A stretch of 64,000 nucleotides of DNA, taken from a virus. Where the stretch lies: positions 1,076 through 65,075 of the IMG/VR virus record IMGVR_UViG_3300025886_000014. One strand, given 5' to 3'. Position 1 is the stretch's first letter; every line of letters begins with the position of its first letter. The position numbers and the translations under genes were made by a program. Below are positions 29,737 to 42,799 of this stretch, one piece after another. The notes below the pieces were generated by a model. It was not told the DNA's origin and did not search any database. It saw only the letters and a program-made list of their open reading frames with translations.

Positions 29737-30966
29737 CTATGCTATTATAAATGCTCTTACTTGGAGTTGCCATTTTGTTGCTGTTAATACACCAGTTCCC
29801 CCAGTATTTTTATCTTGATATATACCTGGCCCACTAGATGCAATTCTAAGAGTTACATTTGTAGCATCTACTACCGCACCGAACCCTTGTTCTGGACCGT
29901 CATTGTCCGTACTTGGATGTATATCAATAATATCATTTACAACATATCCACCCTGTGCGTCAATGCATTTAAGTCTATAAGTTATAATATCAGGTTCTAC
30001 ACCTAAACCATGAGTGAAAACATTTTGACCAGAATTTGAAATTCCGACATAAGAACTTACATACTTTTTTACTAGTTTGCCAGAAACGTCTGTGGATATT
30101 TGTCTTTTTACTTGTAAAGGAGTCATAATTAAATTATTTAAAAGACCACTATCTGCCTCAAAACTATCTGCAATCATATCGCCAGTAATTGAAGCACCAG
30201 ATAGTGCGCCACTAAATGTTCCAGTTGTTGCTGTAATTCCACCAGTAGATGTTATAGCCGCTGAATTAATAGTGTTAAATGTTACGCTAGATGTTGAATC
30301 AACTTCTTGACCAATAGATATAGAATCAGAACTTCCAATAGTAACACCAGTTCCACCCAAAGCATTAAAATTGTTTATTGATGCTAGAGTTGCCGCTGAT
30401 AACGTAAGGCCAATTTTACCATTAGAATCAAGGGTAATATCACTATCGGTACTAAATGATCCACGCGCTCTAGAATCTGTAAAATATAGATTAGGGCTTC
30501 CTTCTGGAACATGTGAAGTAGTAAACCCAACTTGAGAATCTTTTAAAAGACCATCCAGATTGTGGATTACTGGAATTCTTGCTTTATTAAAAACTCCAGT
30601 TGTTATTTTAGTTGTTGGTAGATTTGGAATTCTAGTAGTAGTAAATTGACCACTAGTAATTACACTTGCTGGTAGCGGATCAAGATGTGATGGACTTATT
30701 GAACTACAATTAAAAGAAAAAAGACCGCTATTGGAATCATAAGACAATGTAGTATGACTACCGTTACCACCTGCTACAAGACTTAATGCTGTAGTAACGT
30801 AAGTTGAACCAGAACTTGCTTTAATCTCATTAATTGCTTGAACCAAATCGGTTTTATTAGTTGTAGTGAGATTATCAGGTTCACCTACATATCCAGACAT
30901 AGTGTTTGTTGCATTACGCCAAGTTTCTATTTTATCAGTTAAGTTTACTGTAATTTTTCTAGTCAT
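29737..30966 (-). CDS. Tail fibre-like protein (paralog of 41377-42588)
   Basis: N-terminus TWRNATN.M..YVGEPDNLTTTNKTDLVQAINEI and IPxL.xxKITTG repeats. Late promoter immediately upstream. Confidence 0.65.
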   Translation of the reverse strand: MTRKITVNLTDKIETWRNATNTMSGYVGEPDNLTTTNKTDLVQAINEIKASSGSTYVTTALSLVAGGNGSHTTLSYDSNSGLFSFNCSSISPSHLDPLPASVITSGQFTTTRIPNLPTTKITTGVFNKARIPVIHNLDGLLKDSQVGFTTSHVPEGSPNLYFTDSRARGSFSTDSDITLDSNGKIGLTLSAATLASINNFNALGGTGVTIGSSDSISIGQEVDSTSSVTFNTINSAAITSTGGITATTGTFSGALSGASITGDMIADSFEADSGLLNNLIMTPLQVKRQISTDVSGKLVKKYVSSYVGISNSGQNVFTHGLGVEPDIITYRLKCIDAQGGYVVNDIIDIHPSTDNDGPEQGFGAVVDATNVTLRIASSGPGIYQDKNTGGTGVLTATKWQLQVRAFIIA

Positions 30967-30997: not shown

Positions 30998-31005
30998 TAT
31001 TTATA
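30998..31005 (-). promoter_or_regulatory. T4-type late promoter TATAAATA
   Basis: TATTTATA on + at 30998-31005, overlapping the stop codon of the last cassette gene and about 32 nt upstream of the ATG at 30966. Confidence 0.75.
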
Positions 31006-31447
31006 AGGTTTCTAAGGCTAGTTTAAACTCATCCTCATAATATTTTCTAACATCTGGAACCATTCCTTTCATTTTTAAAGGAAATTCTATATTTTTCAAT
31101 ATTTGATCATAAGTATCAATATCTAAATGATATTGAATAAAATGTGGATCGTTTTCCGCTAGTAGATATTTATCATTTAATAATTCAAAGAAATTTTCAT
31201 CAAAATCTTGAGATAACCAATATGCATAACATATAGCAACAAAATATGATTTTGCTGGTCTAATAGTTTCATCAACATATTCATTAAAGTGTAGTAAAGC
31301 ATCCCTTACAATATTTTCTTCACTCCATGTCACATCCATTTTATTCAAATCATCTGAATACTCTCTATTAAGTAAGTGATAAACTTGGGACGCTGTTCTC
31401 CATTTTCTCATACCAATCCAATAGCCCTTTATATCCGTTACATCCAT
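31001..31447 (-). CDS. Hypothetical protein of the radical SAM cassette (probable true start MRKWRT at 31411)
   Basis: ORF track. Overlaps the end of the upstream rSAM gene. No recognisable family. Confidence 0.6.
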   Translation of the reverse strand: MDVTDIKGYWIGMRKWRTASQVYHLLNREYSDDLNKMDVTWSEENIVRDALLHFNEYVDETIRPAKSYFVAICYAYWLSQDFDENFFELLNDKYLLAENDPHFIQYHLDIDTYDQILKNIEFPLKMKGMVPDVRKYYEDEFKLALETL

Positions 31448-32297
31448 TATCTAAATCCTTGACATATCGGTAATGTTCTGTTAAACAATTACCGAAATAT
31501 TTGCATGAAGCGCAAATCGGACTTATCATTTCTTCTTTTTCTTTTTCTGCCCAATCCAAGTAAGATTGAAAAGAATCCAACTCTTTAAAGTATTCCCTAT
31601 CGTGAACATCAAACTCCAATACTCCAAACTTGCCGTTAGGAGTAATGTAAACATGATCATCCGAAAATGCATTGTATAATCCACTAAAAGACTCCTCTAT
31701 CTTGTTTGCATTTACAAATTGAAAATCCATTTGATTTTCTAATTCCATCCACTGAATAACAAACTTTTCAAAATCTAAATGCGTCACAGTAAATGCATTT
31801 GCTTGATTAATAGAATATGGTTTAATCTCTACTGATTTAACAGCACCACACATATTCAATAATTTTATCATTTCATTTACATTCATCTTTAAAACTTGCG
31901 GTGATGCAAGAATAAGAACAGCAATCGGTACTGGACTCATCATCATATTCTGAAATACCAAATTTGATTTCTCTCTTGCTTCAAAATCGTAAGATACTGA
32001 TAGATAAACATCGTCATCAAAGAAACCATCATGCATCATAGAATAGTTTGTGTTGATATTTATTTTTTTACCATAATACTTTTTAATTGTATTTTTAACA
32101 TCATAAAAATAATTTTTCTTCATAGCACCAATTTCACCACCATATAGATCAACATGCTCTATATCTGGAATTTGTGAAAGTAATTCATCAAGTCTCTCAA
32201 TTGAAATTTTTTTCTGATCGCCTAATTGTTCTGAAGTAAGATAACAAAAATCACAGCGAAAATTACAAAAATAAGATGGATTTACAGATACAATCAT
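31368..32297 (-). CDS. Radical SAM protein with C-terminal Cys cluster (SPASM/twitch-like)
   Basis: CxxxCxxC in NPSYFCNFRCDFCY. C-terminal CASCKYFGNCLTEH...GCNG. Confidence 0.85.
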   Translation of the reverse strand: MIVSVNPSYFCNFRCDFCYLTSEQLGDQKKISIERLDELLSQIPDIEHVDLYGGEIGAMKKNYFYDVKNTIKKYYGKKININTNYSMMHDGFFDDDVYLSVSYDFEAREKSNLVFQNMMMSPVPIAVLILASPQVLKMNVNEMIKLLNMCGAVKSVEIKPYSINQANAFTVTHLDFEKFVIQWMELENQMDFQFVNANKIEESFSGLYNAFSDDHVYITPNGKFGVLEFDVHDREYFKELDSFQSYLDWAEKEKEEMISPICASCKYFGNCLTEHYRYVKDLDNGCNGYKGLLDWYEKMENSVPSLSLT

Positions 32298-33328
32298 GCA
32301 TATTCTCTTACATATTCAGTAACTTTAGTATCCATTCTATTTAAAGAGATTATATCTTTAGCCATAGATTTCATATGTTGACAGTGATCTTCAACCATGT
32401 TATGTTGTTTCAAATCTTTAATTGTTTTACGGCATCCATTACAAATTTCAAACATAGGACAGGTAAAACACGAATTTTTAAGACTCATTAAACTCAAATC
32501 ATTACTGAGAGGTGTCTCAAAACCCCCATTCATTTCATATTCAAAATCTATTGGTTTGTCAAAATCATCACCGAAAGAACCACAAGAATAGTAATCACCT
32601 TCTGGTTGAATATTACGAATGCCACTATCACAGTTTCTGGACTGAGGACATATGGTTGGTTTTTTTCTTAACCTATTTAACATTTGTTGAGTATTATGTT
32701 CCCAATCACTAAGTCCTGCTTTCCAAATTTGAATATATCTCTCATAAATTTTTGATAATCTATATGGTGCTGACTGAGAACCAGATGCCATAGCATAATT
32801 TACCTTACAAACAACATTCATCTTCTTAGCAAGTTGTACAGTCTGTATTACAGTATCTTCATTTTCATCCACAATTACCGCAATAAATGATGGTCTATAG
32901 CCTACATGCTCAAGCATCGCATCAGAACATTTCCAAAAATCTTCTTCTGTAAATTCACTGTAATCTCCCTTGAGCCTACCACCGCCATATTGAAATGAAG
33001 TCCCAACACCAATTCTATGATGATTAAAGAGTTCTGCCCATTTTTTTGGTTTCATTAAAAAAGGATACAAATTGGTTGTAAGGGATATTGTCGCTGGCAT
33101 ATCATGTTTATCTAAAAACTCTATTAATTTCCAATAGTAGTTTGGCCTCATCATTAAAGGATCACCACCATTTACGATGATAGTTTGCGTTTCAGGAAAT
33201 CTTTTAAGAAATTTGAATATCTTATTCAAATCAAGTACAGCAGTGTTATCCTCTTGAGTAATTTTAGAGGAAGAACAAAATGAACATTTAAAATTGCATA
33301 ATTCTGTTGGTTTGATAATTAAGTCCAT
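32294..33328 (-). CDS. Radical SAM/SPASM protein
   Basis: IIKPTELCNFKCSFCSS and NGGDPL. C-terminal CPQSRNC...YSCGSF...CFTCPMFEICNGC...HC. Confidence 0.9.
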   Translation of the reverse strand: MDLIIKPTELCNFKCSFCSSSKITQEDNTAVLDLNKIFKFLKRFPETQTIIVNGGDPLMMRPNYYWKLIEFLDKHDMPATISLTTNLYPFLMKPKKWAELFNHHRIGVGTSFQYGGGRLKGDYSEFTEEDFWKCSDAMLEHVGYRPSFIAVIVDENEDTVIQTVQLAKKMNVVCKVNYAMASGSQSAPYRLSKIYERYIQIWKAGLSDWEHNTQQMLNRLRKKPTICPQSRNCDSGIRNIQPEGDYYSCGSFGDDFDKPIDFEYEMNGGFETPLSNDLSLMSLKNSCFTCPMFEICNGCRKTIKDLKQHNMVEDHCQHMKSMAKDIISLNRMDTKVTEYVREYA

Positions 33329-33903
33329 GGAGAATTCTTTATATTAAAACCAAAATTCATTGTGATTCTTTGCACATTGGGTTTTCTAAAATCCTCAACT
33401 CTATGTTGAAAATTTAAATCTTGACTACCTAATATTAAATCATATTTTTTTGGTAAGTGATAACAAGTGACACGTTTATTTTGTCTCATATTTCGGAACA
33501 TTATTTCACCACCGACTCCTTGTTCCATATCAGTGAAATATAGTAAAAAGAAAACATTTGCACCTTCTCTTAAATCATTATGCCAAGAACTAGAACCATC
33601 ACATGCTCCATTCCAAATATATGAATATATTAATTTTTTGCTCTCATAACAATCGTCATACTTTGATAAGTATGTATCATACAATAAATCAGCAGTTTTC
33701 TTTATTTTGTTTCGCATACCATTCAAATGATAATTCCAACAAATGCTATAACTTTTACAATCATCACCATCATTTAACCATTTTATTTTTGGAATATTAT
33801 CACTACTCATATTTAACCACTTTAGTTTTGGCATAGTATCATTGATATGAATAAACATATTTTTATTATTTTCCATAAGATATCCTTGGTCTTTCATTTC
33901 CAT
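33319..33903 (-). CDS. 2OG-Fe(II) oxygenase
   Basis: WHND (HxD), LYFTD..GGEIMFR, FQHRVE (distal His), RITMNFGF (2OG-binding Arg). Confidence 0.8.
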   Translation of the reverse strand: MEMKDQGYLMENNKNMFIHINDTMPKLKWLNMSSDNIPKIKWLNDGDDCKSYSICWNYHLNGMRNKIKKTADLLYDTYLSKYDDCYESKKLIYSYIWNGACDGSSSWHNDLREGANVFFLLYFTDMEQGVGGEIMFRNMRQNKRVTCYHLPKKYDLILGSQDLNFQHRVEDFRKPNVQRITMNFGFNIKNSPWT

Positions 33904-34466
33904 GGAGATTCCTTTACTTTAAATCTAAAAAGCATTGTTATTCTTTCTTGCTTCAATTCTCTTGTATGCTCAACTCTATGCTGAAACTTTAAATCATCAC
34001 CTACACTTCCCATTACTATATCATATTTTTTAGGTAGATGAAAAGCAGTTATTCTTTTATTTTGTTTCATATTTCTGTACATTATCTCACCACCATTATT
34101 CGGTTCTGAGTCTGTAAAATACAAATTAAATTGTAAGTTGCCACCTTCAGTATCATGATGCCACTCACACGAACCAGTGTCCGTCCCATTCCACATAGTA
34201 TAATAATCCAAGTGTTTTTCGGTTTCCCACGGCAAGTAGGTTTCCCAAAGTAAATCGGCAGTTTTTAGCATCTTACTTTTCATGGAGTGGAAATAATAAT
34301 TCCACGCGACGCTTTGCCATCTGTCAGATTTATCAGAATTACTTCTCTTTAAGTATAACCATTTTAATTTTGGTAATGTATCTTTTATATGAATAAACAT
34401 ATCAGGATTATTTTCAATAAAACATCCAGAATTTTTATCAATATTCATTTTATTCCCAGCCCACAC
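33894..34466 (-). CDS. 2OG-Fe(II) oxygenase, tandem paralog (probable start MNIDK at 34448)
   Basis: WHHD, LYFTD..GGEIMYR, FQHRVEH, RITM. Clearly similar to the neighbouring gene throughout. Confidence 0.8.
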   Translation of the reverse strand: MWAGNKMNIDKNSGCFIENNPDMFIHIKDTLPKLKWLYLKRSNSDKSDRWQSVAWNYYFHSMKSKMLKTADLLWETYLPWETEKHLDYYTMWNGTDTGSCEWHHDTEGGNLQFNLYFTDSEPNNGGEIMYRNMKQNKRITAFHLPKKYDIVMGSVGDDLKFQHRVEHTRELKQERITMLFRFKVKESPWK

Positions 34467-34980
34467 TTACAGTCATTCTTGGTTTAGAGCCAAAATAAGG
34501 TCTAATACAATGTACCATAGAACTATTAAAAACTACTAACCTACCCACTTTTGGTTGTATTCTAGTCTTATTTTTTGGATATTGAAAAATATCAAGAGAA
34601 TCATAAATATCCAACTCACCACCTTGCCAACCATTATTATCTATATCTATAAAAAATAATGTAATGATTTTAGACTCTGTTCCATCATGATGTGGTTCCC
34701 AAATCATATTTTCATTATTATCTTTTTCATACTTGACAATTTTTATCAAATGTGATATAGCAATTTTTTTTACATTTGAATCTTTCACCATCGCAATAGT
34801 TTTTGCTTTATTCAGATTTGGAAAGTCATCCATATTATCTTTAATATTTATCGCCATATTTTTTTGCATGTTAAATCTTGGCAAATCCTCAATAGAGGGA
34901 TTGGCAAAAGAAAACTTGCTTTGTATTCTTTCAAGTTCTTTTTTATTCAAAAAATCATCATAAATTTCTACAGAATTCAT
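34450..34980 (-). CDS. 2OG-Fe(II) oxygenase (prolyl-4-hydroxylase-like)
   Basis: WEPHHD, WQGGEL, PKVGRLVVFNS..VHCIRP, RMTVS. Confidence 0.85.
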   Translation of the reverse strand: MNSVEIYDDFLNKKELERIQSKFSFANPSIEDLPRFNMQKNMAINIKDNMDDFPNLNKAKTIAMVKDSNVKKIAISHLIKIVKYEKDNNENMIWEPHHDGTESKIITLFFIDIDNNGWQGGELDIYDSLDIFQYPKNKTRIQPKVGRLVVFNSSMVHCIRPYFGSKPRMTVSVGWE

Positions 34981-36625
34981 CTAATCTTTCCTTTATCATT
35001 TCTTCATTTTTATTTAATAATATTTTCATTTCATTGACAATATCTTTACCTTTAAAGCGTCCCACATCAAACTTATCTATGCTATGTGGATTTTTATCAT
35101 AAAATATATTTCTTATTAATTCTTTGTAAACAAAAAACATAGGAATATCATTCAATATATTCCACAATTCTTTTGCTACCTCGGAAACATTTTCATATGT
35201 AGTATATTCACTTATAAAACTTAAACCTATATGTGGTGTAAACAAATTCATTATAAACATTTCTAGATATTCTTCAAACGTATATGAAAAACACTCAATT
35301 ATAGTATCATATTCATATGCAACATCCCCATATATTGGATTTACTTCAACATCATCCCATTTTCCGCTATAGTTACCATCAAATTGTGTTAATACTTTTG
35401 AAGTTTTTATTTTATACTTTTCTTGATATTCTTTACTGGCAGTTTCAGTCGCTGGTAAAACCATGTAAGGATATCTAGTGTCTGCCCATACGTCAAGACC
35501 TTTCCATTCTTCCCAATCTTTTCCTTCATTATACCCAACTCTATAGTATACTTTAAATTCCTCGTAAAAATCTTTTAGTGTAGATCCCGGCATCGCTAAA
35601 ATTAATTCTAAGTCTAACCATAATTCTTTTTCTTTAAAATTATTCCATTTATTAGTTAAATGATCCACCAACTCATAAGTTTCCTCAACATTAAGGTCTC
35701 TCCTGTTCGCAATTTTTCTCGCTTCTGGTGATATTGATTGTAAACTGATACTGATAACTTGACGAGTAATATCATGCTCAATCATAAAATCAAGCATTTC
35801 TTTTTTCTGTTCCAATTTTAAAGTTTTTAATACCGATAGATTTTCACCAATTTGAACCCCATTATCCACCATGTGCATCATCATTTCTCTATCACGTTCT
35901 TTAAACATTCCTGTATTAGCATCACACAAATCAATATGTACACCTTTGAACCGCCCTATAAATTCCATTTCATCCTTTATCACAGCCATAGGTTTTTTTA
36001 GAACTTTTGTTCCAGTACCGCCACCCCACTCACAATAAGAACACTTAAATGGGCATCCTCTAGTACTTTCATATATCAATGTTATTCGCTCATATAAGTC
36101 TATATTTTTAATGAAATGCTTATATTCTTTGGTAAAATAATCTTCACATCTCTTATATACATTCGTATGTCCAAATGGAAGAGGAATTTTTAAAGAACTA
36201 CCCAAATAAAATGGAATCTTTTTCTTATCAACAGAATCCTCTAAATACATATCAAGAAAGTATTGAACGAATATTTCTCCTGGAGCAAGAGGGTCTGCAA
36301 CATAGTCATAATCTTTTATTATATCAGGGTCTTGTTGAGGACCACCCATAACTACTATGGTATCTGAGTCAAGGCCATTTCGTATCCTTTGGTTAATTTT
36401 ATAATTCCAAACATAATTGGTAAAAAATACAATAGAACACCCTTTAACATTATCCAAACAATCTTGTATTGTAACTTCATTCCATTTGAATATTGGCTCC
36501 ACCCAAGTAACTTTTTCTGGATATTTACCGTAATCTTCATAAAAACATTTAAAAAGCATCCAATGATAATTAAATTCGGCCCTTGAAGGTATTCCTGTTG
36601 GATTTATATAACCTACTTTAATCAC
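34958..36625 (-). CDS. Radical SAM protein with N-terminal cobalamin-binding-like domain (class B methylase-like)
   Basis: YESTRGCPFKCSYCEWGG. N-terminal FTNYVWN...VVMGGPQ resembles the B12-binding domain. C-terminal ELILAMPG.T motif. Confidence 0.75.
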   Translation of the reverse strand: MIKVGYINPTGIPSRAEFNYHWMLFKCFYEDYGKYPEKVTWVEPIFKWNEVTIQDCLDNVKGCSIVFFTNYVWNYKINQRIRNGLDSDTIVVMGGPQQDPDIIKDYDYVADPLAPGEIFVQYFLDMYLEDSVDKKKIPFYLGSSLKIPLPFGHTNVYKRCEDYFTKEYKHFIKNIDLYERITLIYESTRGCPFKCSYCEWGGGTGTKVLKKPMAVIKDEMEFIGRFKGVHIDLCDANTGMFKERDREMMMHMVDNGVQIGENLSVLKTLKLEQKKEMLDFMIEHDITRQVISISLQSISPEARKIANRRDLNVEETYELVDHLTNKWNNFKEKELWLDLELILAMPGSTLKDFYEEFKVYYRVGYNEGKDWEEWKGLDVWADTRYPYMVLPATETASKEYQEKYKIKTSKVLTQFDGNYSGKWDDVEVNPIYGDVAYEYDTIIECFSYTFEEYLEMFIMNLFTPHIGLSFISEYTTYENVSEVAKELWNILNDIPMFFVYKELIRNIFYDKNPHSIDKFDVGRFKGKDIVNEMKILLNKNEEMIKERLDEFCRNL

Positions 36626-37256
36626 CTTTATAGAACTCCATATTCATAAATTGTATCTTTGTGAACCCTTTTAAAACCTTAGACGTATATGGAGTTTCCA
36701 TTATAGCACTGTCTGGATGGGTAGACATTTTTTTCATTTGAGTGTATAGTGTTTTGGCTGTAGGAACGTAAATAGGTCTATTCTCAATTTCAGTTTTGCA
36801 AAATTTCACCATGATTTTATAAAAGTCTATTTCTTGCCTTCTGGTTAAGCAATCTCTATAAATTCCATTTATTTGAATATTTGACATTATTGTATAATTT
36901 TTAGTTTTCTCTGTACCAATCCACCCTAACTCATAATCATTATTCACTGCTGTTTTGGGTGACCCAGTAAATTGAGTAGTGTAATCTTCTATCATAGATT
37001 TACTATTAACTTCAGATAATAAATTACTTGATAATGGAACACTAAAAACGTACACTTCACTACTCAAAAAATTATCTAAAAAATGAATACATGGGGGTAA
37101 TTCTATATCAACTGAATAATCAAATACTGTACGGCACACATTATAGTCTATATCAATTTCTTTTATTGGAGTAATTAATCTTTTCGCTCTTGTTGGAAAC
37201 CTATTTATAAAAGATTGACTTATTGGAGATTTATCACCATTTCCATAAAAAAACAT
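36618..37256 (-). CDS. Hypothetical protein of the radical SAM cassette
   Basis: ORF track, 212 aa, tightly packed between rSAM genes. No family recognised. Confidence 0.6.
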   Translation of the reverse strand: MFFYGNGDKSPISQSFINRFPTRAKRLITPIKEIDIDYNVCRTVFDYSVDIELPPCIHFLDNFLSSEVYVFSVPLSSNLLSEVNSKSMIEDYTTQFTGSPKTAVNNDYELGWIGTEKTKNYTIMSNIQINGIYRDCLTRRQEIDFYKIMVKFCKTEIENRPIYVPTAKTLYTQMKKMSTHPDSAIMETPYTSKVLKGFTKIQFMNMEFYKGD

Positions 37257-37257
37257 C

Positions 37258-38298
37258 TCATCTTAATCCTTGATTTTCAATATATCTATGTGTCATCTTA
37301 TAAACACATTCATCAAAAATTTCCTCTGCATATTTGTAATCGTGTGCCATGAAACACCCAAGAGTACATCTATGGAAATATTCACAAGTAGAGCAATTGT
37401 ACTTCTCAAGAAATGCTTTCTCAATAGGCTTATTATTGGCCTTTTGTATATCAGTTTTATACATTGCTTTATCTCTTGGCTCTTGAACAAGATTTCCACA
37501 CAAACACATAGTCCCATCCTCAAGAACTAATTTAGATGATCTGCATGAAACAACATTACGTTCATTTTCTATCCAAGAACGAATAGGTTCAATCTTAGGA
37601 TAATTATCTATAAAATGTGTAAAAATATCGTAATGTTCTTTATCTGTCGGCATACTTCTTTCTGCTTGACAATCGGGCATGTAGTAATCAGCATAAACCT
37701 TAACACCTTTATGATATAGATCATGCATAAAATCTTTTGGATCAGTAAGCCAATATCTTATATTTGATTTAGTTAGAAGAACACCTATACCTTCTAAATC
37801 ATCCCAAAAATCATATACATTCTCTTTGAAAATTTCTAAGTTTGGTTTGTTAAATCTACCTCTAGGATCATATGAGGTTACAAGTTTTGTAGCACATCCC
37901 ATATCCCTACACGCTTTTAATATTTCTCTCACATAATCCTTTTTACTAATAACAAGATTAGTTACCCAATTAATACTCACTTCATCAAAGTTATATTTTT
38001 TTCCTAAGTTTACTATTCCTTGAGCAAGAGAAATGTAGTCATTCTTCAATTTTTCATCAAAAATTTCATCGGCAAATATTTCGCCACCCATAATATTTAA
38101 AACAACACGTTTTCTCATTTCTTTCTCAAAGAATTTTTCTATTGATTCTAATTTATCTAAAACTGTATCAATACCCACAATGTTGTCATGGTCTTGCCAG
38201 CAAAATGGGCAAGATAGATTACAAAACTCAAACAAATGAATTGTATATTCTTGCTGCTTATCTCTTTTATCTCTTAAAATAAAATCTACTAAATCCAA
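37258..38298 (-). CDS. Radical SAM protein with C-terminal Cys cluster (SPASM-like)
   Basis: IHLFEFCNLSCPFCWQ and MGGEI. C-terminal CRSS...MCLCGN...CSTCEYFHRCTLGCF...EC. Confidence 0.88.
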   Translation of the reverse strand: MDLVDFILRDKRDKQQEYTIHLFEFCNLSCPFCWQDHDNIVGIDTVLDKLESIEKFFEKEMRKRVVLNIMGGEIFADEIFDEKLKNDYISLAQGIVNLGKKYNFDEVSINWVTNLVISKKDYVREILKACRDMGCATKLVTSYDPRGRFNKPNLEIFKENVYDFWDDLEGIGVLLTKSNIRYWLTDPKDFMHDLYHKGVKVYADYYMPDCQAERSMPTDKEHYDIFTHFIDNYPKIEPIRSWIENERNVVSCRSSKLVLEDGTMCLCGNLVQEPRDKAMYKTDIQKANNKPIEKAFLEKYNCSTCEYFHRCTLGCFMAHDYKYAEEIFDECVYKMTHRYIENQGLR

Positions 38299-38952
38299 TC
38301 AAACTTCTCCTGCACCAACTCCCCAAGTTAATAGGAAAAGTGGATTTTTTTCATAGGACCAATAATCAAATAAACCCTTTCCATTAAACATATATTCATT
38401 AAAATATTTAGAATAATAGGTCAAGTTTTTTTCATCTAATCCATTGTAGTAATAATAAAAATCTTCATGTTTTAATAAAGATACAAAATTAATACCTTTT
38501 ATATCATCAGTATCATCTTCTTCATGTGATATTACCCAATCTTTCATCTCATCATCTTGGATAATATACATATTATAAAGTGTCAATGAATCTAACTTTT
38601 TAATCCAAGTATCAATGACTTCTTTGTTATCATCAATGAAATCTTGATAGCAACCTAAACATTCTAAAGATAGATTTTTTTTCACCAAAAGAACCTCAAT
38701 AATAAATTCTTCTAAAACTTTAATATTTAATATTTGTGGAAACTGAAGATATATTTTTGCAAGGTTCTCTAAATCATTTCCTTCAACTTTAATATCACAA
38801 GGTAACTCTAAGTTGCTTAAATAAACGAGTAATTTCTCACCTTGTAACTCACTATTTTCATAATCAATAATAAAATTAATACTATCATCAGAAAAATATT
38901 TTTGTAAATCATCAATACCTAGTGGTGCAGTCACTGTAACATAATTATTCAT
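38299..38952 (-). CDS. Hypothetical acidic protein of the radical SAM cassette
   Basis: ORF track, 217 aa, directly downstream of the CHSN-repeat gene. No family recognised. Confidence 0.6.
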   Translation of the reverse strand: MNNYVTVTAPLGIDDLQKYFSDDSINFIIDYENSELQGEKLLVYLSNLELPCDIKVEGNDLENLAKIYLQFPQILNIKVLEEFIIEVLLVKKNLSLECLGCYQDFIDDNKEVIDTWIKKLDSLTLYNMYIIQDDEMKDWVISHEEDDTDDIKGINFVSLLKHEDFYYYYNGLDEKNLTYYSKYFNEYMFNGKGLFDYWSYEKNPLFLLTWGVGAGEV

Positions 38953-38959
38953 AATAAAA

Positions 38960-39787
38960 TTATCTCCTATTTCTTGATGAATGGCAATTAGAGTGGCAAT
39001 TAGAATGGCATACAGATTCAGTATATCCTGCTATATTTCCATCTATAGCAACAGTTTTCCATGCCTCATATAGATTATTGAATAATGTTTCCATATCACC
39101 ATCATCAATTAAATCTCCAGCGACTATCATTGAATGATCAACATCAGAAGAATCAATGGTGAAACTATGTCTAGGAGTTAAAACGCCCACTCCACTAACA
39201 CTTATTGCTTTACCTATAACAGCACCACTTCGTAAACTAACTGCATATTTTTGTGTCGCTGATGTACAAGCCGATTGAGCGTCTGAACGTAAGGTCTCTG
39301 CTTCTTGTTTTGTGGAAGGTTTTCCACCAATACCATATGAATTCCAATTTGTAAAAAACTCTGAGATAAATCCACCAAAAGTAACACCAGCCCCAGCAGA
39401 TACTTCGTTGTCTAAAGCATCTCTCCATTCACAAGCAAAGTTTTTTTCCTTTTCTGCATTTTCGGTAGATGCCGTATTGCGTGACGGTATTGGTATATTT
39501 CCACCTGGAATACCAGTTACAGTTCTTGTGGCAGTAAATTTTCTAACTCTAGTATATTGGTTAATATCCTTTAATAGAACAGCAAAAATATTTGATGCTG
39601 TTATTGGCCCATCCAACAAATCAGGATTTGTTGTCACACCAGTTGTATTTCCATGAAAATAACTTGCTACTGATGCAAATGGTAGATTATCATCACCAAA
39701 CACAATAGCATCATTAATTTTATCAGTCACAAACTGTCTGTATTTTGTAATTACAGGGTTTTCTGTAATAGGGTCTGATATTGCCAT
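38960..39787 (-). CDS. Protein with C-terminal (CHSN)n Cys/His repeat; candidate substrate of the cassette
   Basis: Ends VCHSNCHSNCHSSRNRR*. A 12-nt DNA repeat is visible at about 38978-39010. GGAG SD upstream. Confidence 0.7.
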   Translation of the reverse strand: MAISDPITENPVITKYRQFVTDKINDAIVFGDDNLPFASVASYFHGNTTGVTTNPDLLDGPITASNIFAVLLKDINQYTRVRKFTATRTVTGIPGGNIPIPSRNTASTENAEKEKNFACEWRDALDNEVSAGAGVTFGGFISEFFTNWNSYGIGGKPSTKQEAETLRSDAQSACTSATQKYAVSLRSGAVIGKAISVSGVGVLTPRHSFTIDSSDVDHSMIVAGDLIDDGDMETLFNNLYEAWKTVAIDGNIAGYTESVCHSNCHSNCHSSRNRR

Positions 39788-39797
39788 TCTTTATCTC

Positions 39798-40817
39798 CTA
39801 GACATTCTTTGCCAATTCCATCATTAAACTTTTAGGTGCGCCACACACATCACCTTCCCATCCTAATTGGTGACAATCACCACCACAATATTTTGCAACA
39901 GGACAAGAAAGGCAATTGGGGTTTCTCATTTTTTCTTCAATAATAGTTCGTATTCTTCTAGGACTATTTATAAGAGTTTTAATAGAATCATCCAAAGTTC
40001 CGAATTGAAATTCTGGTGCTGAATTCGGACAACCACTTATTGTACCATCTCCATTTATTGTAAATAATTTTGTTTCACAATCTCTACAAAAAGTGCCACA
40101 CGTAGTAAGAGTTTTCTCAAACTTAGCATATACATTTTCAAGAAAGTCATTTTCAAACCAATCTCGCGCACCATATTTTTCACTTTGTTGATGCATTTTC
40201 AAAAAATAAGCATCTAATTCTTTATTAGATGGAAATATCTCTGATGCTTCTCTAGCATTACCATTATTAGTTAATCTCTCTAAGGATACTTCTTGAACCC
40301 CTAATCTTCTACACCATCTCAATAATACAATAGGGTCTTTTTCTAAAGTATCTTTAGTAAGACTAATAAACAAACGTATAGTTACACCATCTGCTAAAAG
40401 AGACTTGACGTTTTTATGCCATAAGTTATATTGTCTTTGATTATCAAATCTTATCTTACGGTCCCATGAAGTTCCTAACCTATTCCTAAGTGGGCCTTTT
40501 ATAAATTCTCTATGCTGATCTTTTAATTTATATACTAAATTGGTTGTGGCTCCCCAACTCATATTATCCCAAAGACCATCACAAGCATCATACACTTTTC
40601 TCATTTGCCCTACAGGTACAAGAAATGGTTCGCCACCATGAAACTCTAAATGAATACCATCATCCTTCGCAGGTTTTTCTTCACGAAATCTATGTATCCA
40701 ATCAACTATCTTATCAGTATTCCAATAAATTTTAGCACCGTTGCTACCAGAGGTAAAACAGTGCTTACAGTTTAATTGACAAGTTTCTGTGGTTTTAAGA
40801 TATACTGACCAAAACAC
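39798..40817 (-). CDS. Radical SAM/SPASM protein
   Basis: YLKTTETCQLNCKHCF and FHGGEPFL. C-terminal CGTFCRDC...ISGCPN...CLSCPVAKYCGGDC...C. Confidence 0.9.
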   Translation of the reverse strand: MFWSVYLKTTETCQLNCKHCFTSGSNGAKIYWNTDKIVDWIHRFREEKPAKDDGIHLEFHGGEPFLVPVGQMRKVYDACDGLWDNMSWGATTNLVYKLKDQHREFIKGPLRNRLGTSWDRKIRFDNQRQYNLWHKNVKSLLADGVTIRLFISLTKDTLEKDPIVLLRWCRRLGVQEVSLERLTNNGNAREASEIFPSNKELDAYFLKMHQQSEKYGARDWFENDFLENVYAKFEKTLTTCGTFCRDCETKLFTINGDGTISGCPNSAPEFQFGTLDDSIKTLINSPRRIRTIIEEKMRNPNCLSCPVAKYCGGDCHQLGWEGDVCGAPKSLMMELAKNV

Positions 40818-41313
40818 TATTCATTTTATCCTCTATAAATTTTTCTAAGCCAAAACTCAAAGTAAGTGCTTCATGTTCATTAAATGCTTGGTGAGGGGTA
40901 TTCGCAGGAATATGTAGTGTTGCACCTTCCTTCAAAGTAAATACTGGTTCACCACCCATAGTATGACCTTCCATTGCTATCGTTTTCATTCCTTCACAAC
41001 AATATATAACGACATTATCTGGATCAGTATGTTTTTTGAATGAATGAGCATTTTTTTCAGCATAAAATAAATGACATGTTATTGGGCCATTATGATCATA
41101 CATATCTTCTAGTTCTAAACAATAAGAAAAAATCTCCGAGTTATATGCTTCCATTCTTTCAATTTTTATTGAATTTGTATTTTTATTTGCAAGAGTATCC
41201 GCAAAATTTTTCATTAGATGTTCTCTGCCATTTTCATCTATTGCATAAACCATATTTTGTTCATACGCAAGATCACTCGCAATTATTTTTAAGAATTGAC
41301 TCTTAGTAAGCAT
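40795..41313 (-). CDS. JmjC/cupin-like Fe(II) oxygenase
   Basis: HLFY...SFKKHTD (HxD)...GATLHIPANTPHQA...LTLSFG, matching the cupin-4/JmjC pattern. AAGGA SD upstream. Confidence 0.7.
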   Translation of the reverse strand: MLTKSQFLKIIASDLAYEQNMVYAIDENGREHLMKNFADTLANKNTNSIKIERMEAYNSEIFSYCLELEDMYDHNGPITCHLFYAEKNAHSFKKHTDPDNVVIYCCEGMKTIAMEGHTMGGEPVFTLKEGATLHIPANTPHQAFNEHEALTLSFGLEKFIEDKMNSVLVSIS

Positions 41314-41339
41314 AACAAAATCCTTTAATGACTAAGACT

Positions 41340-41368
41340 ATTATAAACTACATAGCCTAAAATGTCAA
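41340..41368 (-). promoter_or_regulatory. Consensus sigma70 promoter (TTGACA-N17-TATAAT) upstream of the radical SAM cassette
   Basis: On +, TGTCAA at 41363-41368 and ATTATA at 41340-41345 with an exact 17-nt spacer, in the 63-nt intergenic gap. Confidence 0.85.
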
Positions 41369-41376
41369 TATGTAAT

Positions 41377-42588
41377 TTAGAGTTTAAGGACACACTCAAT
41401 CATTTTTTCACCCTCAAAATCATTACTTTCAAGAGCGAGACCTACTAATTCTGCACCATTAAACTCTGAACTAGCAACACCATCACGCCAAGTATATACT
41501 GCCTCACCTTTTCTAATTTGACCATTTACTCTTACGGGAACCCTACCTTTAAGTGCAAGTGCTTGTCCTTCTGCTTCTGCATTCATAAGAAATGCTGGCT
41601 CTGCTGAAACGACTCCAATTGGAATACCAGAAGTGGTACATCTTGTAGTTTCACCAGTTGGCCCAAAATTTACCATCATAACAGTGCCTATTGGATAATC
41701 TTCATCTGTGGTATATTTTTCCGCAAGGTCAGCAAAATTAGCAGATGTAGCATTACCATGAAAAGTTGTTGCGTACATATTTGCGTATTTAAACGATGAA
41801 CTACCCACACTGTAAGAGTTATCTGTGTCTGGAACAATATGCCCACCGTGATTTATTTGACCATTAAATGTTGATGTAACAGAAAGAGCGGAAGTCCCAA
41901 CAGTAACCGTATTGTAAAAAGTACTAGTTCCATTATATACTCTTGTACCAGTGTATGATGTGGAAACATTATTTCTTACAAGAGATGGGTCCATTGCTTC
42001 TAATGGTATTGTAGTACCATCAGTCACTATTTTACTAGCAGGAATATCAGGTATTCTTCCTATTAGAAAAGTTCCCCTATTAATTTTACTAGTATGTAAA
42101 GATGGAATACGATCACTATCAAATTGCCCAGCAGTGGTTTGATTTGCAGATAGATATGGTAATCTAGCAGTTGCTAATGTTCCAGTTGTTATAACCCCAG
42201 CATCTATTGCTGGTATTAATGATGGATTAATAGTTCCAGTTGTTAATTTTCCAGCATCTAAATTAGGAATATCGTTTGCCGTGAGTGGATTACATGTGAA
42301 TGTAAATACCCCACCACCAATACCTGCTGAATCTGTATAAGATAAACTTGAATATGTACCAGACCCACCAGTTGATAATGCTAATGCAGTTCTTGCTAAT
42401 CCTTGCACTTCACCATTAACAGCAAATTTACTTTCAATTGAATTTACTGCACCGACAATACTTCCACTATCAGTTGTATTTAAATCATCTAAATCACCTA
42501 TATAAGTTGCAGTAAGGTTTGTTTTCATTCTCCAAGCATTTACTGAATTACTGAGATCAACATTTTCTAATCTAGCCATTAGTGTCAC
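41377..42588 (-). CDS. Tail fibre-like protein with C-terminal chaperone-like domain (probable start MARLEN at 42579)
   Basis: Contains 18-aa IPxLxAxKIxxG repeats. C-terminal ADLAEKY....YPIGTV...IGVVSAEPAFLMN...ALKGRVPVRVNG.I.KG (peptidase G2-type chaperone-like). Confidence 0.7.
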   Translation of the reverse strand: MTLMARLENVDLSNSVNAWRMKTNLTATYIGDLDDLNTTDSGSIVGAVNSIESKFAVNGEVQGLARTALALSTGGSGTYSSLSYTDSAGIGGGVFTFTCNPLTANDIPNLDAGKLTTGTINPSLIPAIDAGVITTGTLATARLPYLSANQTTAGQFDSDRIPSLHTSKINRGTFLIGRIPDIPASKIVTDGTTIPLEAMDPSLVRNNVSTSYTGTRVYNGTSTFYNTVTVGTSALSVTSTFNGQINHGGHIVPDTDNSYSVGSSSFKYANMYATTFHGNATSANFADLAEKYTTDEDYPIGTVMMVNFGPTGETTRCTTSGIPIGVVSAEPAFLMNAEAEGQALALKGRVPVRVNGQIRKGEAVYTWRDGVASSEFNGAELVGLALESNDFEGEKMIECVLKL

Positions 42589-42799
42589 CTAACTTTCTGG
42601 AAATTTCTACAAGCAGATTTTTCATATCCGCTACTTCTGATTTTAATACTTGAAATTCTTCTTTTTCTTCTCGCATTTTTTTCTTTCTTGCCTTCGCTTT
42701 TTCAATTTCTACAAGATCACTATTAATTATAGCACCAGATTCTAAATCTTTGACATAATTTTTTTCACCTTGAATTTTAGAAAATAACATATTAATCAC
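42572..42799 (-). CDS. Small coiled-coil hypothetical protein
   Basis: ORF track. KDLESGAIINSD followed by a basic/acidic coiled coil. Lies directly after the VrlC-like gene. Confidence 0.6.
   Translation of the reverse strand: MINMLFSKIQGEKNYVKDLESGAIINSDLVEIEKAKARKKKMREEKEEFQVLKSEVADMKNLLVEISRKLGDTNG

Follow-up and report, generated by a model that had tools for sequence, protein, structure and literature searches.

The locus and its gene cassette

The DNA analysed here is a 64-kb stretch, which we call the window, from IMG/VR virus record IMGVR_UViG_3300025886_000014, and our subject is an open reading frame (ORF) on its minus strand at 38960-39787, together with the cassette of radical S-adenosylmethionine (rSAM) genes in which it lies. 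The ORF encodes a protein of 275 aa whose C-terminus, taken from the ORF and its translation, is VCHSNCHSNCHSSRNRR / TESVCHSNCHSNCHSSRNRR*. We refer to the product as the CH-tail protein and to its residues 260-275, CHSN-CHSN-CHSS-RNRR (38963..39010), as the CH tail. All window genes and features given with coordinates below are likewise on the minus strand.

An earlier note, made from the letters of the window, had pointed to three Cys-His pairs at a spacing of four residues, and the translation bears this out, with C260, C264, and C268 falling on every fourth residue; the protein has only two further cysteines, C119 and C174, as had also been said. The 12-nt repeat that was thought to encode the tail is real for the first two units (TGCCATTCTAAT and TGCCACTCTAAT, identical at 11/12 bases) but loose for the third (TGCCATTCATCA), since units 2 and 3 share only 7/12. 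The body, described as rich in Thr, Gly, and Ala, is no more than mildly enriched in them (T 9.5, G 8.0, and A 8.7%, with S at 9.5%). In a six-frame translation of the 64-kb window, the CH-tail gene is the only real ORF that contains CH..CH. In Pfam and NCBIfam the protein falls into no family, and its match to PHROG 35144 is marginal and lies at the C-terminus.

The gene had also been placed between two rSAM genes of the SPASM type. Upstream this is accurate, with rSAM_A (339 aa; 39798..40817) directly adjacent; downstream, the orphan gene p217 (PHROG 20767, 217 aa; 38299..38952) intervenes before the next SPASM-type gene, rSAM_B (346 aa; 37258..38298). Annotation of about 90 loci by phmmer with the window cassette proteins gave the same order in nearly all of them: a fibre-like gene, a cupin gene, rSAM_A, the CH-tail gene, p217, rSAM_B, a variable set of B12-type rSAM and 2-oxoglutarate (2OG) oxygenase genes, rSAM_C, rSAM_D, and p148. 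In the window, the first cassette gene encodes a small JmjC-like cupin (172 aa; 40795..41313), which is recognized by Pfam Cupin_2 and JmjC_2, by its invariant H95-x-D97...H141, and by synteny. At the other end lie rSAM_C (344 aa; 32294..33328), rSAM_D (309 aa; 31368..32297), and p148 (31001..31447), an orphan gene assigned by synteny, without a Pfam or PDB match, that closes the core cassette. rSAM_A is always found directly upstream of the CH-tail gene, and p217 always directly after it.

Exactly four rSAM paralogs are present in 58 of the 60 complete cassettes. Eleven of the 60 possess neither the B12-type rSAM nor an oxygenase, which defines an eight-gene core of the cupin, rSAM_A-D, the CH-tail protein, p217, and p148. 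The association also holds when examined from the side of the enzyme: an rSAM_A profile has 311 relatives in IMG/VR, and among the best 80 of these, all 75 informative loci have the tail ORF downstream, while the remaining five contigs stop within 300 nt past the rSAM gene. In both directions, therefore, SPASM-type rSAM genes adjoin CH homologs in essentially every locus, as the earlier note had required of a true partnership.

The Shine–Dalgarno sequence of the CH-tail gene overlaps the TAG stop codon of rSAM_A (window 39780-39815), and that of p217, AGGAGA, consists of the last two Arg codons of the CH-tail gene (window 38940-38975). From these overlaps we read the pairs rSAM_A/CH and CH/p217 as translationally coupled.

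The cassette sits in a fibre module. It follows a VrlC/DUF4815 gene and is bracketed by two paralogous fibre genes, which have an N-terminal region of about 150 aa in common. The first (403 aa; 41377..42588) is a tail-fibre-like protein by PHROG 19602, domain coverage, and synteny, and most loci have its C-terminal domain (approximately residues 256-403) again in whichever gene stands before the cassette, gp176 of Agrobacterium phage Atu_ph07 being one example. The second (29737..30966), assigned by synteny and domain coverage, closes the cassette in the marine subgroup.

Conservation of the tail

An exhaustive phmmer search of 1.8 billion cluster representatives with the CH-tail protein returned 141 matches at E < 1e-3; a word-indexed search with the same protein returned 15 relatives. 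The pattern CH..CH..CH..R.RR-COOH is matched exactly by 139 of the 151 members examined, invariably at a distance of 16 residues from the C-terminus, and the family consensus reads V-C-H-[SA]-S-C-H-S-[SN]-C-H-[GS]-S-R-G-R-R-COOH. By position-specific counts, the invariant residues are the Cys, the His, and three Arg. As the fourth residue of a unit, 81%, 69%, and 90% of members have Ser (units 1, 2, and 3, respectively), and Asn accounts for most of the remainder. Outside the tail, family members diverge to approximately 20-30% identity, many falling below 30%, and the motif, for which conservation among homologs had been named as the decisive check, is kept down to about 25% identity. This conservation is far beyond chance.

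One might suspect that the repeat is maintained at the level of DNA. Among 97 distinct DNA versions of the tail, however, the Cys, His, and Arg codons use every synonym, and Ser is encoded by both AGY and TCN codons; because synonymous codons vary this freely, selection must act on the peptide and not on the DNA repeat. Taken together, the invariance of the motif and the constant adjacency of rSAM genes strongly support the tail as the likely core for rSAM chemistry.

Natural variants are rare. Three members (P0072, P0133, and P0144) carry His-to-Tyr swaps in the tail, which match the interchangeability of His and Tyr seen in rSAM cyclophane synthases (PMC11002830). Others, such as P0142, have four units instead of three. 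We had considered one rSAM paralog per CH unit as a possible division of labour; this is ruled out by P0142, whose four-unit tail is still accompanied by about four rSAMs.

The rest of the protein is considerably more plastic. CH proteins span 190-450 aa, and the usual length is about 190 aa. The window protein is some 90 residues longer in its middle owing to a lineage-specific insertion, residues 97-189 (39221..39499), which is supported by the alignment, the structural model, and VIA-align. In one lineage, that of P0047 (L176:9001-10362), the C-terminal ~50 residues (helix, strand, and tail) stand behind a Gly_rich_2 (PF21722) N-domain, which also matches PHROG 863 'tail fiber assembly', and the gene occupies the same slot between rSAM_A and p217. 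On this sequence evidence, the C-terminal ~50 residues behave as a module.

Two cysteines of the insertion deserve a separate remark. C119 and C174 lie one on each long helix of a predicted hairpin and are conserved across the long-form subgroup, and they may form a disulfide staple within it.

The enzymes

The radical SAM motif CxxxCxxC is invariant in all four paralogs, each examined in 63-72 homologs (C13/17/20 in rSAM_A, C26/30/33 in rSAM_B, C11/15/18 in rSAM_D, and likewise in rSAM_C). rSAM_A, B, and C keep seven or eight C-terminal cysteines, including a Cx2Cx5Cx3C block and flanking Cys, which amount to sets for two auxiliary 4Fe-4S clusters, and all three have full SPASM domains; rSAM_A has eight of these cysteines, and rSAM_B has seven. 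rSAM_D possesses a single auxiliary motif, Cx2Cx5Cx3H...C, for one cluster. Synteny and Cys conservation identify rSAM_B, C, and D; for rSAM_A there is in addition the SPASM model TIGR04085, on which it passes with 35.1 bits against a cutoff of 27. The four are ancient paralogs.

Full-length alignments of rSAM_A to maturases lacking a RiPP (peptide made by the ribosome and modified after translation) recognition element, or RRE (TIGR04083, PapB, DynA, and the anaerobic sulfatase-maturating enzymes, anSME), are weak, with scores 10-fold under the curated cutoffs. Neither p217 nor p148 matches any family, and PDB sequence searches with the CH profile, rSAM_A, p217, and p148 returned nothing meaningful.

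Distribution

The CH-tail family is phage-specific. A scan of IMG/VR found 154 loci. In a scan of prokaryotes with one genome per species (185,579 species), there were two matches: an artefact, discussed at the end of this article, and L090, a contig of a metagenome-assembled genome (MAG) that is phage-like and carries a giant fibre-like gene with the cassette.

Carriers fall into three unrelated groups of phages, namely marine T4-like phages; phiKZ-like phages (RSL2, the FLC phages, and S13) with pPa_SNUABM_DT01; and the T4-like jumbo phage Atu_ph07. The window belongs to the first; the nearest relatives of its baseplate wedge protein, 26-32% identical to it, come from pelagiphages and cyanophages. 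Isolates with a family member include the Ralstonia and Burkholderia phages RSL2, RSF1, FLC4/6/8, RsoM3USA, and SURPRISE13, as well as Agrobacterium phage Atu_ph07 and Pseudomonas phage pPa_SNUABM_DT01. A tblastn search of isolated phages with the window protein and with a 189-aa relative (P0011) returned nothing, and the isolate homologs were reached via the rSAM neighbour, by translating the gene downstream of it. A search for near-identical DNA gave no match.

The stretch at window 36600-42600 recurs almost letter for letter in marine metagenomes from at least 11 studies (2014-2024), which indicates a wide oceanic distribution of this type of phage. Two metatranscriptome libraries also hold contigs that cover the cassette, and contigs of this kind cannot prove transcription.

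Evidence from virions

Experimental evidence on the nature of the protein comes from Atu_ph07, for which virion mass spectrometry has been published. Supplementary Table S5 of that study lists gp170, a protein of 31.89 kDa (PMC6102473); our homolog P0017 has exactly this mass, which identifies gp170 as P0017. It was detected in virions through eight unique peptides, at 35% coverage. Gel fragments 1-9 all contained it, with a peak in fragment 1, the uppermost slice, in spite of its low mass; the peak of the 117-kDa sheath protein lies in fragment 2 and that of the capsid protein in fragment 6 (PMC6102473). The fibre-like gp176 encoded upstream is listed among the virion proteins as well. The table does not contain the rSAMs gp171, gp168, and gp165, the cupin gp172, or the p217 homolog gp169 (PMC6102473).

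This separation of protein and enzymes bears on the idea that the CH-tail protein, instead of being the substrate of the enzymes, is an accessory to them, such as a scaffold or a sacrificial donor that supplies their rSAM clusters with sulfur or iron. A tail rich in Cys and His, encoded by a gene tightly coupled to rSAM genes, is what one would expect of such a helper; we nevertheless find the idea very improbable, as the homolog is in virions and the enzymes are not, and as a variable middle and swapped N-domains are typical of structural or receptor-facing proteins.

Structure predictions

An AlphaFold2 model of the CH-tail protein, built with 80 family sequences, has a predicted local distance difference test (pLDDT) score of 87.4 and shows an alpha/beta core with strands at residues 28-31, 81-91, 194-203, and 253-260. 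The tail follows the last strand at a pLDDT of about 55 and is predicted to be flexible and exposed. The insertion is modelled as an antiparallel helical hairpin, for which the VIA-align matches are generic helical hairpins (Z up to 7.4). Fold searches with the whole model (PDB, BFVD, AFDB clusters, Atlas, and VIA-align wide) matched nothing beyond members of its own family and generic helical hairpins. The model of p217 is very confident (pLDDT 91.3, predicted template modelling score 0.87), and searches of PDB, AFDB clusters, and VIA-align wide gave no match, the best Z being 4.4. Judged by these models, the CH body would be an orphan alpha/beta domain and p217 an orphan fold.

The earlier note had offered either a long folded leader or a structural domain with a C-terminal core. 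The structural domain agrees with the confident orphan fold and with the presence of gp170 in virions, and is the better description than the long folded leader. The latter would make the protein the precursor of a RiPP, with the tail modified, cleaved, and released as a cofactor, metallophore, or toxin, and the body discarded. It is true that the layout of the genes, with optional tailoring enzymes, resembles that of RiPP clusters, and that cofactor precursors of the PqqA and MftA type also have an invariant core. Across the approximately 90 loci, however, the cassette contains no conserved protease or exporter, the body that should be thrown away is confidently folded and sits in the particle, and the same C-terminal module is found joined to a fibre-type Gly-rich domain; we therefore give this explanation hardly any credence.

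The models also bear on the idea that the tail stays unmodified and binds metal or an Fe-S cluster, each chain contributing Cys3His3, perhaps as layers of Cys3 and His3 in a trimer. The site would then terminate a fibre-associated protein, comparable to the iron held by His in T4 gp37 or the Fe-S cluster in tail tip proteins of the lambda gpL type, and the rSAMs would have some other substrate, for instance a small molecule or the fibre encoded nearby. Metal sites are well known on the axes of fibres and spikes, as in T4 gp37, gp5, and P2 gpV. Besides Arg, the only invariant side chains of the tail are Cys and His; the gene lies within a fibre module, and the homolog in virions is a high-mass species stable to sodium dodecyl sulfate. 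What this explanation leaves unaccounted for is the strict co-inheritance and translational coupling of four rSAMs, a cupin, p217, and p148 in three phage groups, and the Ser/Asn of the fourth position and the R-x-R-R end, which are conserved like the Cys and His. The tail lacks the HxH motif typical of T4 gp37 and is rich in Ser and Gly, with predicted flexibility. On balance we regard an unmodified metal site as unlikely.

A virion protein with a probably modified tail

We consider it probable that the CH-tail protein is a virion protein of the fibre module and that its tail is the substrate of the cassette. We infer the substrate role from four things: a short, exposed tail that is invariant; the fact that three unrelated groups of phages never separate it from the four SPASM-type enzymes; the protein being in virions without the enzymes; and the behaviour of the C-terminus as a module.

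Under this interpretation, the product of 38960-39787 would be a component of the phage particle, in the tail-fibre or baseplate module. After translation, the rSAM enzymes would abstract hydrogen atoms from residues of the tail and form covalent links, for which there are two options, both with precedents that suit the spacing. In one, Cys sulfur would be joined to the Ser/Asn at the third position after it, through the alpha or beta carbon of that residue, as in sactipeptides and ranthipeptides; in the other, C2 of His would be joined to the Ser/Asn at the second position after it, through the beta carbon, as in triceptides and the HXS system. An anSME-like conversion of Cys to formylglycine at C-H-[GS]-S-R is conceivable as well. 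The cupin and oxygenases may hydroxylate residues such as Arg, Asn, or His; the optional tailoring enzymes would be the B12-dependent rSAM and the 2OG oxygenases, of which there are at most three. The result would be a stiff C-terminal knot, cross-linked and perhaps able to bind metal, that becomes part of the virion. In our assessment, any single chemistry for the tail (thioether, Cys-His, or His-Ser) is much less probable than the substrate role itself.

A more specific proposal can be put forward tentatively, as quite possible but somewhat short of probable: the phage rSAM set installs covalent cross-links in a host-recognition protein, either within the tail or from the tail to a neighbouring subunit, as a 'staple' made by radical chemistry. 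Such a staple would be conserved across phages, from the abundant T4-like viruses of the ocean to jumbo phages that infect Agrobacterium, Ralstonia, Burkholderia, or Pseudomonas; its machinery would include two partners with new folds.

Several points weigh against a modified virion tail and should be kept in mind. The enzymes could act on the neighbouring fibre instead, and a Cys3His3 tail could bind metal without being modified. The Atu_ph07 stock was purified with polyethylene glycol, and its protein list includes a few likely contaminants of low coverage (PMC6102473). The gel loading buffer, as described, contained no reductant (PMC6102473), and the tail holds the only cysteines of gp170, so that the high-mass gp170 could be linked by disulfides through free tail thiols, contrary to complete thioether formation. 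Lastly, the scores for specific enzyme families are all far below the curated cutoffs, and the chemistry can therefore not be read from homology.

Comparison with known systems

A published precedent for the maturation of a whole protein is the bacterial HXS system (HxsA, HxsB, HxsC, and HxsD), in which HxsA is matured by rSAMs at its HxS motif, with a change of +8 Da on SHRSS (PMC13128918). It follows that rSAM enzymes can mature a whole protein at an S-H-x-S-S motif. Both systems act on a whole folded protein with several rSAMs and small partners, and both targets have tandem H-x-S in a basic context, the Ser and His being essential in HXS and the CH tail having three H-x-S/N units. They differ in that HXS is an anti-phage defence of bacteria with a periplasmic, peptidoglycan-binding effector and two rSAMs, whereas the CH system is encoded by phages, has a virion protein as its target, and comprises four rSAMs and a cupin. 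Eighty members of the CH family gave no match in NCBIfam or Pfam at E up to 1, neither to the HxsA model nor to a peptidoglycan-binding domain.

One could take the likeness literally and suppose that the matured tail is a basic HxS array that binds DNA or an envelope polyanion, for instance to help eject the genome or to counteract defences of the HXS type. The three H-x-S/N units followed by R-G-R-R fit this, as does HxsA itself, which is matured by two rSAMs and a small partner, depends on its HxS repeats, and binds DNA (PMC13128918). The matches of rSAM_A and rSAM_C to HxsB and HxsC point the same way, and they are weak (33.6 bits vs 370 for HxsB, 31.7 vs 267.9 for HxsC); HxsA and HxsD have no match. 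The repeat logic of HxsA involves no Cys, which is invariant in the CH tail, and the synteny indicates fibres and not DNA-ejection machinery. We judge a polyanion-binding array to be quite unlikely.

With the CXXX-repeat system (TIGR04115), the CH system has in common that cysteines recur every four residues towards the C-terminal end and that the gene of a SPASM rSAM maturase adjoins that of its putative target. The CH tail differs in its three units with invariant His and Ser/Asn, in its R-x-R-R end, and in belonging to a virion protein of the size range given above. TIGR04115 aligns to rSAM_A only at residues 4-66 (E 1.4e-9; 37.9 bits vs a cutoff of 350), and the curated CXXX-repeat target model has no NCBIfam match among the 80 members. 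As a side observation, 25% of the members of a neighbouring viral cluster in the ESM Atlas carry the Pfam 38.1 family PF27846 'tSAM_targ_Cxxx_rpt'; the lead is confined to that cluster.

Maturases of ranthipeptides and sactipeptides (PapB, CteB, and NxxcB) and QhpD are also minimal SPASM rSAMs that form Cys thioethers three to four positions away in repeated motifs, and QhpD acts on a protein subunit. The ranthipeptide spacing fits the CH tail, with Cys sulfur joined to a carbon three residues on (Cys-Asn in NxxC peptides and Cys-Asp by PapB). The acceptor here would be Ser/Asn and not Asp, Glu, or Thr, and the tail has no acidic acceptor. The PapB model NF047865 aligns to rSAM_A over its full length at E 4e-11 (42.7 bits vs a cutoff of 340).

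Triceptide synthases (XyeB/XncB, GrrM/OscB, FxsB/MscB, HaaB, and YhhB) are SPASM rSAMs that recognize an aromatic-x-X motif. MscB acts on Phe-x-Ser, and HaaB and YhhB act on His-x-Ala or His-x-Arg; the counterpart in the CH tail is His-x-Ser/Asn. Triceptides are small and secreted and have leaders, unlike the CH-tail protein, and this chemistry does not cover a role for the invariant Cys. The best scores against XyeB, GrrM, FxsB, YhhB, and AmcB are 19-31 bits, against cutoffs of 310-450. The anSME family (TIGR03942) resembles the cassette enzymes in being an RRE-less SPASM rSAM of similar size that acts on Cys or Ser in a protein, and C-H-[GS]-S-R, the last unit of the tail, is reminiscent of its C-x-[PA]-x-R; over their full length, the enzymes match weakly, rSAM_A at E 6e-10 (38.8 bits) and rSAM_C at E 2e-12 (46.7 bits) against a cutoff of 349. 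The CH target differs from those of anSME in lacking a sulfatase fold and in having three units and four enzymes.

In the metal-binding tips of other phages, such as the HxH iron sites of T4 gp37, gp5/PAAR proteins, and the Fe-S protein gpL of lambda, a Cys/His cluster likewise terminates a protein that belongs to the adsorption apparatus. In addition to the missing HxH, the CH-tail protein has no predicted beta-helix or needle, and only here is there a dedicated enzyme cassette.

In the literature we found no description of the cassette or its target, only passing mentions of 'radical SAM' in genome papers on jumbo phages and pelagimyophages. Compared with the systems above, the general kind would be known, that is, rSAM/SPASM maturation of a Cys/His-repeat target; what would be unusual is a virion protein as the substrate, four conserved paralogs for a tail of 16 residues, and two partners with orphan folds. 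Covalent chemistry in virions is familiar from the HK97 chainmail and from autoproteolysis, both of which are self-catalysed. To our knowledge, radical modification of virus-particle proteins installed by enzymes is absent from textbook accounts of phage assembly.

The eight-gene cassette costs a phage 7-10 kb and is kept in unrelated lineages, which suggests a strong benefit, probably in adsorption or in the stability of the particle. For enzymologists, it offers four uncharacterised SPASM-type families whose putative substrate is known, tiny, and invariant, as well as two confidently predicted orphan folds, and culturable carriers are at hand in Atu_ph07, RSL2/RSF1, FLC6/FLC8, S13, and pPa_SNUABM_DT01.

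Accessory genes and other features

The variable part of the cassette is well filled in the window. The orphan gene p212 (36618..37256) occurs only in the marine T4-like subgroup. Next to it lies the accessory B12-type rSAM (34958..36625), found in about half of the complete cassettes, which matches the KedN5-like C-methyltransferase family far below its cutoff (NF033712, E 1e-23; 83 bits vs 700). Three accessory 2OG-Fe(II) oxygenase genes follow (34450-34980, 33894-34466, and 33319-33903; Pfam 2OG-FeII_Oxy_3), the number varying from zero to three across loci. Between the use of Asn or Ser in the tail and the presence of tailoring enzymes there is only a weak trend, which is confounded by lineage.

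Anyone who runs a pattern search for CHxxCH should be aware of one trap. The ORF at L091:1443-1613 in an actinobacterial MAG reads as '(CHSN)x9' and is an artefact, which arises when the PTATPTAT repeats of a 507-aa protein are translated out of frame.

Two loci depart from the usual arrangement. At L090:6062-6879 and L065:9986-10749, two short CH-tail genes (126-140 aa) stand in tandem directly behind a giant fibre gene, with the cassette enzymes further downstream and p217 not detected there.

Ahead of the cupin gene, at 41340..41368, the window carries a candidate sigma-70-type promoter, TTGACA-17-TATAAT, which is proposed from its consensus match (12/12); no second site within 12 kb matches at all 12 positions.

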